IMG/VR virus record: IMGVR_UViG_3300025889_000073
Location: 32,001-96,000 of that record
Origin: a virus
Reading direction: 5' to 3' (one strand)
DNA length: 64,000 nt
Shown here: in pieces, positions 7,430-28,929 of the stretch
Position numbering within the stretch: the stretch's first letter is position 1
Layout of the letters: each line of letters begins with the position of its first letter
Position numbers and translations under genes: made by a program
Notes under the pieces: generated by a model
Told to the model about the DNA's origin: nothing
The model's input: the letters and a program-made list of their open reading frames with translations, nothing else
The model's database searches: none

Positions 7430-7828
7430 ATGAAACAAGAATATGATGGAATCTTTTTTACACCTAACCCCGATTCCGATGATGAAAATGAACTTAAACT
7501 TTCCTTTTTTGATTTTAAGGACGAGTTCGCCAACAAAGAATCAATAGAGGGTACACAAATCGGCGATAAGTATTATGTTGCTTTTTTTCAACGTGATGAA
7601 GAAGGTGATGTTGAATTTGATGGTTCTTTTGAGGCTATCTTTGCCGACCCTAAAGTTTATATACAAAGATTGGCTGGAACAAAAGTTTATGGCTGCATTG
7701 TTCGGAAAACAGAAAATTCGGGCGAATGGTTTCAAAATTACCTCACAAATGCTCTGGAAAAAGTTAAAATACGAAAATTGATGACATACTGTAAAGCAAT
7801 TGTAGATGCCGAAGTGAAAAGGACATGA
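7430..7828 (+). CDS. hypothetical protein
   Basis: 132-aa ORF. Confidence 0.65.
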   Translation: MKQEYDGIFFTPNPDSDDENELKLSFFDFKDEFANKESIEGTQIGDKYYVAFFQRDEEGDVEFDGSFEAIFADPKVYIQRLAGTKVYGCIVRKTENSGEWFQNYLTNALEKVKIRKLMTYCKAIVDAEVKRT

Positions 7829-8100
7829 TTATGGAAAATTTTAACACGCCAAGAGGCAAAGAATGGATTCATAGCGTTCTAAAAATGCATGAAACCTCAA
7901 TAGTGTTCACAAAAAAAGACGGAACTGAGCGAAAAATGCTTTGTACACTCTTGGAAGACAAAATTCCGAGCGAAAAAATGCCAAAAAATTCAGGAAAAGC
8001 AAAAAATGAAGATTCTATTGCTGTTTTTGACTTGGAAAAGCAAGACTGGCGCTCATTCCGGTTTGATTCTGTGAAGGAAGTTAATTTTTCAATCGAATAA
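7825..8100 (+). CDS. WYL_2/SH3-like beta-barrel protein
   Basis: FTKKDGTERxMxCT and VFDLEKQDWRSFR motifs. Confidence 0.75.
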   Translation: MIMENFNTPRGKEWIHSVLKMHETSIVFTKKDGTERKMLCTLLEDKIPSEKMPKNSGKAKNEDSIAVFDLEKQDWRSFRFDSVKEVNFSIE

Positions 8101-8778: not shown

Positions 8779-8854
8779 GCCGGTTTAGCTCATTTGGTAG
8801 AGCAACGCACTTGTAATGCGTAGGTGGTCAGTTCGAATCCGACAACCGGCACCA
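8779..8854 (+). tRNA. tRNA-Thr(UGU)
   Basis: cloverleaf, ACGCA-CT-TGT-AA-TGCGT, GTTCGAATC, CCA end. Confidence 0.95.
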
Positions 8855-8873
8855 TATTAAAGGAGAAATAAAA

Positions 8874-8921
8874 ATGACAATTGAAGAATATTGGAAGTGG
8901 ATACACGAAAACGTACAATAA
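8874..8921 (+). CDS. micro-ORF MTIEEYWKWIHENVQ
   Basis: strong AAGGAG SD; lies between two tRNAs. Confidence 0.45.
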   Translation: MTIEEYWKWIHENVQ

Positions 8922-8932
8922 AAATTTGTTAT

Positions 8933-9017
8933 GCGACTGTGGCGGAATAGGTAGACGCAACAGACTTAAAATCTGTCGGCTTAGGCCGTGCCGGTTCGAT
9001 TCCGGCCAGTCGTACCA
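8933..9017 (+). tRNA. tRNA-Leu(UAA)
   Basis: ACAGA-CT-TAA-AA-TCTGT, long variable arm, CCA. Confidence 0.95.
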
Positions 9018-9020
9018 ATT

Positions 9021-9097
9021 CTGACCATAGTTCAGCTGGATAGAACAACAGCCTTCTAAGCTGTGGGTCGGGGGTTCGAATCCCTCTGGTCAGGCCA
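9021..9097 (+). tRNA. tRNA-Arg(UCU)
   Basis: ACAGC-CT-TCT-AA-GCTGT, CCA. Confidence 0.95.
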
Positions 9098-9099
9098 AT

Positions 9100-9127
9100 T
9101 CCTCGATAGCTCAGTTGGTAGAGCAGT
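9100..9127 (+). pseudogene. truncated tRNA 5' fragment (Asn-like)
   Basis: TCCTCGA-TA-GCTCAGTTGGTAGAGC-AGT: acceptor 5' strand and D arm only. Confidence 0.7.
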
Positions 9128-9204
<77 letters not shown>

Positions 9205-9208
9205 TTAT

Positions 9209-9283
9209 GTGAATGTGGTCGAATGGTTAGGCACCGGATTGCAAATCCGGACTATGCAGGTTCGAATCCTGTCATTCACTCCA
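9209..9283 (+). tRNA. tRNA-Cys(GCA)
   Basis: CCGGA-TT-GCA-AA-TCCGG, U discriminator, CCA. Confidence 0.95.
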
Positions 9284-9284
9284 G

Positions 9285-9360
<76 letters not shown>

Positions 9361-23364: not shown

Positions 23365-23393
23365 TTGCCAAATGGTCTTGTTTGTGTTAGAAT
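23365..23393 (+). promoter_or_regulatory. sigma70-type promoter
   Basis: TTGCCA-17-TAGAAT with extended -10 TGTG. Confidence 0.7.
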
Positions 23394-23425: not shown

Positions 23426-23851
23426 ATGGCTCGTGGTAAATCTACGAAACTGAAACCTTTCGAAAAGCTGTTGACCGTTATGGTCTCTGGCAAACCGGTG
23501 ACGCTTGAAGAAATTGAAGCAACACTCGGCAACGAAATTCATATGTATCGAATTTCAACCTATATTTGGCATATTAAAACATTTGCCAATGGCGTTGTAA
23601 AGGCTATCAAAGATGGCCGAAAAGTTACTGCTTATCAGGTCACAAATGTTGACAAGATTAAGGAGTATTTCCGTATTACTGGTATTGACCCTAGCAAATT
23701 TGTTCCTGGTCAAGCCGACAAGATTGTTCGTGCTAAGAAAAAAGTTGTTTCTAGCAAAGTGAATAAACTTGTAGATTTGAAGGCGAAGCCTCAACAAAAA
23801 AATGTTGTTGAAACCGAGGACATTGAAGTCGTTGAGGTTACTGAGCAATAG
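23426..23851 (+). CDS. putative winged-helix DNA-binding early protein
   Basis: TAAGGAG SD; helix-turn-helix-wing-like pattern. Confidence 0.55.
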   Translation: MARGKSTKLKPFEKLLTVMVSGKPVTLEEIEATLGNEIHMYRISTYIWHIKTFANGVVKAIKDGRKVTAYQVTNVDKIKEYFRITGIDPSKFVPGQADKIVRAKKKVVSSKVNKLVDLKAKPQQKNVVETEDIEVVEVTEQ

Positions 23852-24028
23852 ACGTTCCGCTTTGTTAGCGGATACTATGACCCGTAGGATGAGAAGTGGG
23901 GTGACTCCCAAGGGTGGTTCCAGTCTTACCAAACTGGCGCTGGCAATGCGAGAACGGTCCCTGTCGGGGAGCGGGTGGAAGGAGCGTATGCTCTATAATT
24001 ACCGCCGGGGGACGCAGAGCATTTTTTT
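23852..24028 (+). ncRNA. GC-rich structured ncRNA candidate
   Basis: intergenic; at least 6 stems and a possible pseudoknot; ends in a U-tract. Confidence 0.6.
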
Positions 24029-24039
24029 ATAGGGTTGTT

Positions 24040-24342
24040 ATGAACGAAAAACAAGAAGAAGTTTTACGAATAGCACAAGAGGAATGCGCTGAAGTGATAC
24101 AGGCTATTTCCAAAGTGTTTAGATTTGGATTGCACACAGAACATAATGGCAAAACAAACCAATCAAGCTTGACTGATGAAGTTGGCGATTTACTTTGTAT
24201 GATTGAATTATTTTCCGAATTTGGTGTTTTGGATAAAAACAGAATTAAATTTTGTGCTTTGAAGAAACGTGAGAAACTGGAAAAGTGGTCGAGTATTTTT
24301 AAAAATGAAATTGAAGAATATCGTGCCGCCGGCGTTATCTAA
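24040..24342 (+). CDS. MazG-like NTP pyrophosphatase
   Basis: EECAEVIQAISK...DEVGDL. Confidence 0.8.
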   Translation: MNEKQEEVLRIAQEECAEVIQAISKVFRFGLHTEHNGKTNQSSLTDEVGDLLCMIELFSEFGVLDKNRIKFCALKKREKLEKWSSIFKNEIEEYRAAGVI

Positions 24343-27858: not shown

Positions 27859-28217
27859 AAAGTATACTGGCAGCGCTTTTGATTATGTTGCCGGTGATTG
27901 GTTTTGCTGAACCAAAAAAGAAAGAAGAATCTAAGCCGTTAATGATGAATGTGGAAACAATGTGCAATGATTCATCATTATTAGATTTGGTTATGTTTAA
28001 ATATGGTGAAATGCCTGTTATAAAAATGGAATCAATTCGTAGTTTAACTAAAGGAGATGATACTACGTCATTTGTTTCAGTTTTATTTGTTAATCAAAAA
28101 ACAAGAAGTTGGACTTTGATTGAAGAACGAGGACCCTTATATTGTGTTATTGGTGTTGGAGTGAACATTCGAATTTTTTCTGATAAACAATCTGAGGAAC
28201 AAACTAAATATTATTGA
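27855..28217 (+). CDS. exported hypothetical protein
   Basis: signal peptide, paired Cys. Confidence 0.65.
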   Translation: MKSILAALLIMLPVIGFAEPKKKEESKPLMMNVETMCNDSSLLDLVMFKYGEMPVIKMESIRSLTKGDDTTSFVSVLFVNQKTRSWTLIEERGPLYCVIGVGVNIRIFSDKQSEEQTKYY

Positions 28218-28220
28218 TAT

Positions 28221-28567
28221 ATTGCTGTATGAAGCAATGAGAAAGGTGTTCTGGACGGCGGTTCGATTCCGCCCACCTCCACCATAAGCACACTGGCCTT
28301 TGGGTGTAGTCCGTAAGGATCAAGAGATAATTTCAAAGACCCCATATAACCAAGTTAGTGTGCTTTTGATGGGGGTGTACAGGTTTCGACAGGGCAATGA
28401 GTAACAGAGTGGACAGCAGGGCAATGTGAAAGCCCTTAGGGTTGAGACTACTCGGCCGAAGAAGCAAAAAAAGTAAACGCAAACGATGAAGTTTACGCAC
28501 TAGCTGCCTAATAAAAGGTAAGCAGGAGTTTTTGGAGGTTTTGACTTGGCAACAGAACAAAACCTCC
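28221..28567 (+). ncRNA. ssrA: circularly permuted two-piece tmRNA, tag ANDEVYALAA
   Basis: acceptor piece with T-arm and CACCTCC-ACCA ends at 28284; coding piece starts GGGGGTG...TTCGAC at 28371 (G3:U70); tag 28479-28511. Confidence 0.92.
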
Positions 28568-28599
28568 TTTCGGAAAAGTATTGAAAAGAGTGAAAAGAT

Positions 28600-28929
28600 A
28601 TGATTGGTATAGATTTAACTAGAATTTCTAGGTTTGAAGGTATTGATTTAGAACGCCTTGGTATGAAATTAGGTCATAAATTAGATAGTCCAAAAACTGC
28701 TGCTAAAGTTTGGGCCTGTCTTGAGGCTTTAACAAAAGCTGAAGGAAAAAAGTTTAACCCCAAAAATATAAAGTTACTTTTTAACGTAGCCTGTGCGCCA
28801 ACGGTAAAAGGTGTTGACCCTAATCCTATGGTTTATTCTGACCGTGTATTATCTGGTGAATATATATTATCTTTAACCCATGAAGGCGACTATGTTGCCG
28901 TTGTTGCTTTGCGTAAGGAAATGAAATGA
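28600..28929 (+). CDS. acpS: holo-ACP synthase (4'-phosphopantetheinyl transferase)
   Basis: IGIDL..ISRF, WACLEALTKA, LSLTHEGDY. Confidence 0.8.
   Translation: MIGIDLTRISRFEGIDLERLGMKLGHKLDSPKTAAKVWACLEALTKAEGKKFNPKNIKLLFNVACAPTVKGVDPNPMVYSDRVLSGEYILSLTHEGDYVAVVALRKEMK

Follow-up and report, generated by a model that had tools for sequence, protein, structure and literature searches.

In phage T4, two small stable RNAs that are not tRNAs, RNA C and RNA D (species 1 and 2; genes rnaC and rnaD), are encoded in the tRNA operon directly after a tRNA, tRNA-Arg, and are presumably freed by the tRNA-processing enzymes. Of these RNAs, which measure 139 and 119 nt, RNA C has a tRNA-like GGUUCGAAUCC arm and RNA D terminates in CACCA. 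The roles of both are unknown (PMC3014915).

GOLLD (RF02032) and ROOL (RF03087) are much larger (about 600–800 nt or more), intricately pseudoknotted orphan RNAs of phages and prophages, which form 8- to 14-mer cages and for which no partner protein has been identified. In phages, both are often encoded close to tRNA islands and frequently follow tRNA-Met, as one GOLLD representative does (10.1101/2024.12.08.627333). HDV-like theta ribozymes, minimal structured RNAs with the nested double-pseudoknot HDV fold, are found flush against phage tRNA genes and are thought to help mature the tRNA ends (PMC10879173).

RNase P RNA likewise serves tRNA biology as a folded molecule. It contains a long-range pseudoknot and GNRA loops, and its archaeal versions have k-turns as well. 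Its hallmark is the P4 long-range pseudoknot flanked by CR-I (GAGGAAAGUCC) and CR-V (ACAGAA..CGGCUUA).

Here, we describe a family of pseudoknotted phage RNAs, most of which, like T4 rnaC and rnaD, lie inside tRNA arrays flush with same-strand tRNAs. The copy from which the analysis started is not so placed.

A structured element between ORF141 and a MazG-like gene

The window (the whole 64,000-nt stretch of DNA analysed) covers bases 32001–96000 of a 171.7-kb IMG/VR virus record rated complete by CheckV; contractile-tail-type tail and baseplate genes are present in the same phage. A first-pass annotation, made from the letters alone, had proposed a highly structured non-coding RNA in a GC-rich island of the window. 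The flagged stretch is the entire gap of 177 bases between a 141-codon ORF (ORF141) and a MazG-like ORF (Table 1), and its GC content is indeed distinct (54–58% at 23850–23999 versus 26–45% in the flanks). The MazG-like product (100 aa) aligns only to positions 84–167 of the 195 in phrog_4856, and in phrog_2245 only to the C-terminal part; as judged by these profiles, it is a short, single-domain form.

No Rfam 15 family (4227 covariance models) was found on 23852–24028, either at the gathering score or at E ≤ 10 with permissive filters, and neither ARAGORN nor the Rfam tRNA and tmRNA models returned anything there. This agrees with the initial view that the RNA is not a tRNA, a tmRNA, an RNase P RNA or a known riboswitch. 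The same was observed for eight relatives, in which no Rfam 15 match at E ≤ 5 overlapped the element. Folded as a single sequence, the element is unremarkable (MFE −62.2 kcal/mol, z = −0.73). The case for an RNA must therefore come from comparison.

Comparison places the conserved boundaries of the family at ACGU (start, at 23852) and AGCA (end, at 24018–24021). The ends of the RNA would lie near these two motifs, as suggested by their conservation and by the neighbouring tRNAs. Two domain covariance models, R1 and R2, were used for family searches; both match 23852–24021 (120.8 and 74.3 bits, respectively), and the 171.7-kb genome, the window included, holds no second match. The T7 run that follows may act as a weak stop or as a processing spacer; the terminator scan made no call because no hairpin abuts it.

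Table 1. Position of the RNA, its structural elements and its neighbours in the window
Feature	Coordinates	Strand	Remarks
Promoter-like site TTGCCA-17-TAGAAT, extended TG	23365–23393	+	10/12 consensus matches
ORF141, 141 codons	23426–23851		No Pfam or PHROG match
Structured non-coding RNA gene, 170 nt	23852–24021	+	5′ multi-hairpin pseudoknotted domain and 3′ rod-like arm
H1, 5′ strand CGU	23853–23855	+	Pairs with ACG 23954–23956; weak closing helix, 63.9% paired
H2 hairpin UCCGCU/AGCGGA, loop UUGUU	23856–23861 / 23867–23872	+	All 5 pairs vary on both sides
H3 hairpin CUAU/GUAG, loop GACCC	23875–23878 / 23884–23887	+	97.9–99.5% paired; 3/4 pairs vary on both sides
Pseudoknot, 5′ strand ACCC	23880–23883	+	In the H3 loop
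H4 hairpin UGGGG/UCCCA	23897–23901 / 23906–23910	+	All 5 pairs vary on both sides; 90.8–93.9% paired
Pseudoknot, 3′ strand GGGU	23912–23915	+	Pairs with ACCC 23880–23883; followed by near-invariant GGUUC
H6 hairpin CAGU/ACUG	23921–23924 / 23933–23936	+	93.4–93.8% paired
H7 hairpin CGC/GCG, 7-nt loop UGGCAAU	23938–23940 / 23948–23950	+	99.5–100% paired; third pair UA 53/CG 42
H8, 5′ strand GUCCCU	23957–23962	+	Pairs with GGGGAC 24008–24013; closes the 3′ arm
H9, 5′ strand GCGG-G-UGG, bulged G	23971–23978	+	Pairs with UUACCGC 23999–24005; 97.8% paired
H10 hairpin GGAGC/GCUCU, loop GUAU	23981–23985 / 23990–23994	+	97.8% paired; 5/6 pairs vary on both sides
Single-stranded 3′ tail GCAGAGCA	24014–24021	+	Last four bases AGCA nearly universal in the family
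T7 run after the RNA	24022–24028	+	Seen in the sequence; no call in terminator scan
MazG-like ORF, 100 codons	24040–24342	+	PF03819 5.5e-5; phrog_4856 2e-21

Comparative fold of the 5′ domain

The structure was drawn by hand and its pairs were counted on MAFFT alignments of non-redundant sequences (72 for the 5′ domain and 64 for the 3′ domain), with pairing partners slid by 1–3 columns as a control. In the 5′ domain, 91.3% of the cells were paired, versus 29–49% when the partners were slid; 20 of 28 pairs vary on both sides, and the covariation score was reached by no shuffle. On a model-fitted alignment of 97 loci, which leans towards the structure, pairing was 97.5%. Together with the 3′ domain described below, both-sided variation was seen for 35 of the 50 pairs.

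All stems listed in the first-pass annotation are found in the sequence, accurate to the base, and nine out of ten were upheld by the comparative analysis. The exception is the proposed closing stem CGTTC/GAACG, which shrinks to 3 bp (CGT/ACG, our H1, with 64% of the cells paired) since its two last bases are part of H2, the hairpin that follows. Family members of the ‘GAACGG’ variant have H1, and those of the variant with a 9-bp H8 lack it. H2 itself was paired in 89.6% of the cells on the MAFFT alignment and in 99.1% on the model alignment.

The proposed pseudoknot between the ACCC loop and the downstream GGGT holds throughout the family. It is 99.3–99.7% paired and compensated at two of its four pairs (CG 82/UA 12; CG 90/AU 2/UA 1), the compensated variants being GAUCC with GGAU, ACAC with GUGU and ACUC with GAGU. 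A different pairing, of GGUU with the loop AACC, was rejected since GGUCC variants carried no compensating change.

Between the pseudoknot and H6, just after GGUUC, one to three additional hairpins with GNRA loops are inserted in relatives. H6 has two covarying pairs (CG 65/UA 19 and GC 50/AU 44) and a conserved loop of 8 nt, CUUACCAA (family consensus C.WACCNA). In H7, covariation links the final base of the loop, 23947, to A23954, the fourth base after the hairpin (UA 62, CG 26, UG 7, unpaired 0). The first and fifth bases of the H7 loop, U and A, are compatible with a T-loop.

The 3′ arm, the tail and structural sub-families

In the 3′ domain, 92.0% of the cells were paired among 64 homologues, versus 38–61% in the slid controls, and 15 of 22 pairs vary on both sides. 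In the closing helix H8 of the family, 8/9 pairs vary on both sides, as in UCCUGUGUG/CACACAGGA and UCCUAUCUA/UAGAUAGGA. A local hairpin UCCC/GGGA in its place was ruled out by covariation, AACC being paired with GGUU at the 3′ end. The H8–H9 junction contains two isolated covarying pairs. The second pair of H9 covaries without exception (CG 40/UA 24); an alternative returned by RNAalifold, GUGGU with ACCRC, was dropped in favour of this helix.

H10 is minimal in the window copy. Relatives lengthen it with the motif GUGAUG...CUGAUG, which would form a C/D-box-like k-turn. The window copy also lacks the GNRA hairpins and is close to the minimal core of the family. An alternative pairing of the tail with H10, apparent in the window copy, was not conserved and was discarded. 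Within the terminal AGCA, the first three bases are invariant in the 64 sequences and the final A nearly so.

Two forms of the RNA can be distinguished. The first, to which the window copy belongs, combines H1 and a 6-bp H8 with the tail GCAGAGCA; the second has no H1, a 9-bp H8 and a tail reduced to AGCA. This suggests that either the 5′ leader or the 3′ tail may alternately extend one helical stack. The distal part of the 3′ arm is replaced in some sub-families that keep the 5′ domain: it is a much larger branched domain in L160, L173, L182, L188, L196 and L220, and is cut down to a plain hairpin GCGGU...ACCGC in L163, L167, L177 and L191. The GGAAGG / CUAUAAUU internal loop is thus dispensable.

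Strand and coding potential

Several G-U pairs are conserved (for example GU in 61/64, 58/64 and 63/63 sequences); read from the opposite strand, they would turn into C-A. The covariance models match the + strand only. Both observations indicate that the RNA is read from the + strand.

Stop codons interrupt all six frames in 67 of the 84 full-length copies, and the frames that remain open are in differing phases. Codon-level conservation of the overlapping ORFs was not found, and the RNA is non-coding. The first-pass claim of a highly structured non-coding phage RNA at this site is thus borne out by comparative pairing and by the stop census. The PHROG match of the MazG-like ORF begins at position 84, and we also considered a split or intron-interrupted MazG. 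This was rejected, as the upstream ORF shows no MazG similarity and the element also occurs between tRNAs.

Family size and distribution

Eight copies of the element were present among loci collected via the two flanking proteins, ORF141 and MazG. IMG/VR was scanned with two patterns. Pattern 1, made of two invariant blocks (GACCCGYAGGA...GGGTGGTTC), was found in 50 contigs, one of which is a chance match; pattern 2, an independent block (ACCNAACYRGCGNTRGCNRYRCGA), was found in more than 118 contigs among the matches listed. Both patterns combined give at least 113 distinct elements. Their length is 160–290 nt, with differences that are not multiples of three, and each of 97 loci, like the complete 171.7-kb genome, has a single copy.

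When pattern 2 was run on one genome each of 185,579 prokaryote species, 20 matches were obtained, about the number expected by chance according to our estimate. Only one is real as judged by the covariance model (117 bits): L242, on NZ_JBBAKG010000090.1, a 23-kb contig of a Haliscomenobacter sp. MAG which also carries five tRNAs and a two-piece tmRNA. We read this contig as that of a related phage, assigned to the MAG by binning, or as a prophage; it may point to the host. In blastn, none of 50,697 cultured-phage records matched the element even at E ≤ 1. Neither Rfam 15 nor the literature searched contains the family; it may be among the 8,495 unnamed IMG/VR candidates of a structured-RNA catalogue (PMC10690425). 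It is a phage-specific, uncatalogued family, present in more than 100 uncultured tailed phages and usually located among tRNA genes.

Association with tRNA and tmRNA genes

A same-strand tRNA ends 0–9 nt upstream of the RNA in 57 of the 105 loci with enough upstream DNA, most commonly tRNA-Met (18/57). Downstream, a tRNA starts 3–12 nt after AGCA in 45/82 loci with enough DNA on that side, and a same-strand tRNA is present within 1 kb in 88 out of 110 loci. The six tRNAs of the window, identified by ARAGORN and Rfam (Thr-UGU, Leu-UAA, Arg-UCU, Pro-UGG, Cys-GCA and Met-CAU), are clustered at 8779–9360 on the + strand. Unlike most relatives, the window copy lies 14.5 kb from this cluster, and tRNA-linked processing cannot make its ends here.

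A two-piece (circularly permuted) tmRNA gene is located 4.1 kb downstream of the RNA, at 28167–28602 (+), with Rfam scores of 133 bits (tmRNA_permuted) and 102 bits (beta_tmRNA) and the tag peptide ANDEVYALAA predicted by ARAGORN. In the closest relatives, a two-piece tmRNA gene is also found on the same strand 2–5 kb downstream of the RNA. Tags encoded by relatives include ANDERFALAA, ANDELYALAA and ANDSQFALAA.

Clustering of neighbours across loci did not reveal any constant partner protein, and neither a Ro60/TROVE nor an L7Ae homologue was found in the complete genome. In L173, an RNA polymerase omega-like gene (PF01192, 2.8e-14) lies at 7789–8016 (+), directly downstream of the RNA. The same arrangement occurs in L220 and L202, and an omega-like gene is found within a few kb in four more contigs; none was found in the window.

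The promoter-like site upstream of ORF141 (Table 1) probably drives this ORF and, by read-through, the RNA. Co-transcription from this site, proposed at the outset, is plausible and fits the finding that, among 48 copies lacking an upstream tRNA, just 2 have a strong promoter-like site of their own. Since an own promoter is this rare, the RNA must be excised from longer transcripts.

Relation to known RNAs

The family resembles T4 rnaC and rnaD in its position and in its presumed release by tRNA-processing enzymes. It is larger (160–290 nt versus 139 and 119 nt) and has neither the terminal CACCA nor the tRNA-like arm. Homology was rejected: in the T4 tRNA region (L238), nothing was matched by R1 or R2 at E ≤ 1, and no likeness could be seen by eye.

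With GOLLD and ROOL, the family shares an intricate pseudoknotted fold and the orphan status, but its members are far shorter. Membership was rejected, since the RF02032 and RF03087 models do not match even at E ≤ 10 and the size is below 500 nt. The theta ribozymes are comparable as structured RNAs adjoining phage tRNA genes, but the RNA described here is several-fold larger and has another helix order. HDV-family models did not match the element, and the order of its helices is unlike P1-P2-P3-P1.1-P4.

Some details loosely recall the CR-I/P4/CR-V arrangement of RNase P, namely a GGGAAG strand leading into the bulged H9 and CUAUAA before the 3′ strand of H9. However, H9 is nested and not a P4 pseudoknot, CR-I and CR-V are absent from the consensus, and no RNase P model matched at E ≤ 10; this assignment was discarded. 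Several motifs (GACCC, GAAGUGA, CCGAAC, GGUGGUYC and the bulged helix) had prompted a look at 5S rRNA, the SRP Alu domain, RNase P and group I introns. All four were rejected, as the motifs come in a different order or the helices are arranged otherwise, and none of the models scored. A Y RNA/YrlA–Ro60 system was likewise rejected: no TROVE match exists in the complete genome, and the lone YrlA match (23 bits, E 0.93), found in a relative, falls on a tRNA.

A proposed role and its alternatives

On balance, we consider it probable, with restrained confidence, that 23852–24021 is the gene of a stable, compact RNA which would act in trans in the takeover of tRNA functions and translation. The molecule consists of five hairpins in the 5′ domain, tied by the 4-bp loop pseudoknot, and of a 3′ irregular rod (H8-H9-H10) with a free AGCA tail. 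RNase P cleaves the 5′ ends of tRNAs, and endo- and exonucleases trim their 3′ ends. In tRNA arrays, 3′ maturation of the upstream tRNA would make the 5′ end of the RNA, and the RNase P cut at the downstream tRNA would leave a trailer of a few bases on its 3′ end. From the conserved ends, we infer such a release by tRNA-processing enzymes. In the phage studied here, a minimal copy has moved into a protein operon, ORF141-RNA-mazG, and is probably transcribed from the promoter-like site at 23365 through ORF141 and trimmed by host nucleases.

The folded RNA would then bind a specific partner of the tRNA and translation apparatus (a protein, the ribosome, a tRNA or tmRNA), and this binding would serve the phage in taking over translation. 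That this role would lie in translation or tRNA metabolism is suggested by guilt by association, as the neighbours are tRNA and tmRNA genes. Invariant unpaired bases, optional peripheral GNRA hairpins and an optional k-turn are features typical of RNAs that work folded. Together with the invariant junctions and loops and the pseudoknot, such modules for tertiary contacts indicate that the RNA acts as a folded object and not by long antisense pairing. A search of the window for antisense targets of the J3/4 strand gave 3 sites versus 3.1 expected, one of the three being the RNA itself.

More tentatively, and with a rather low probability, the family may represent a new functional class of RNA for phage tRNA/tmRNA biology, either a new ribozyme processing or modifying the RNAs of the arrays or a particle which, like ROOL and GOLLD, assembles itself, here from 170-nt units. 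Such a class would be built around the invariant pseudoknot, GGUUC and the two hairpin loops that are conserved.

Two further explanations, similar to each other in likelihood, appear doubtful. According to the first, the RNA would be self-cleaving or otherwise catalytic and would excise itself or its neighbours from polycistronic tRNA or mRNA transcripts. Its complex pseudoknotted fold with many invariant unpaired bases would suit a ribozyme, as would its position flush with tRNA ends and the need for excision even without flanking tRNAs, as in the window; small ribozymes adjoining phage tRNAs offer a precedent (PMC10879173). Against this, Rfam 15 ribozyme families do not match even at E ≤ 10, the architecture is unlike the nested double pseudoknot of HDV-like ribozymes, and where tRNAs flank the RNA their cellular enzymes already account for both ends.

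According to the second, equally doubtful one, the RNA would form an RNA-only assembly, a multimer like ROOL or GOLLD, or serve as a decoy soaking up a host factor, such as a tRNA-directed defence nuclease or a processing enzyme, and so protect the phage tRNAs. The habitat is common to both, in phages near tRNA islands and often after tRNA-Met (10.1101/2024.12.08.627333), tRNA-Met also being the commonest upstream neighbour in our loci, and no partner protein was found. However, the RNA is three to five times smaller than ROOL and GOLLD, with which it has no common sequence or structure; no covarying self-complementary loop was found, and the decoy idea is without direct support.

Far less probable than these is a cis-acting leader. 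The first-pass annotation had envisaged a cis-regulator of the downstream MazG-like gene, and a riboswitch or a protein-binding operator could have controlled this pyrophosphohydrolase gene through the T7 run. Indeed, the RNA is directly upstream of mazG in the window and precedes the T7, and the order ORF141-RNA-MazG is kept in L014, L016, L019, L020 and L024–L027. Yet the RNA was present in the flanks of only 5 of the 80 related MazG loci (and of 4/21 ORF141 loci), it lies downstream and not upstream of MazG in L033 (= L108), and the majority of copies are between tRNA genes, where there is no ORF to regulate. No terminator was called at the T run, which no hairpin abuts, and the alternative pairing of tail and H10 is not conserved. 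In some relatives, ORF141 directly adjoins the gene that follows mazG here, and in others MazG occurs without the RNA. The variable position relative to MazG and the small number of MazG loci with an RNA are those of an independent gene, not of a leader, and the leader reading is largely refuted by this distribution.

A protein-coding element, either the 76-codon ORF 23802–24032 or a GTG-started N-terminal extension of MazG (23914–24342), can practically be dismissed: both frames are open in the window and the MazG ORF covers only the second half of its PHROG profiles, but most copies are closed by stops in every frame, the remaining open frames and the lengths do not keep phase, substitutions track base-pairing instead of codons, and the element is also found between tRNA genes.

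Significance

RNAs with complex folds conserved to this degree are rare, and earlier examples have proved to be ribozymes or riboswitches, or to form the core of RNA-protein machines. The present family conserves ten helices, a pseudoknot and invariant junctions, with optional k-turn and GNRA modules. The window copy is among its smallest natural versions (170 nt, no optional modules), which makes it a convenient construct for structural and cleavage work. Since the family accompanies tRNA and tmRNA genes and is without relatives both in Rfam and among cultured phages, it marks an unexplored part of how large phages re-equip the translation system of their hosts.
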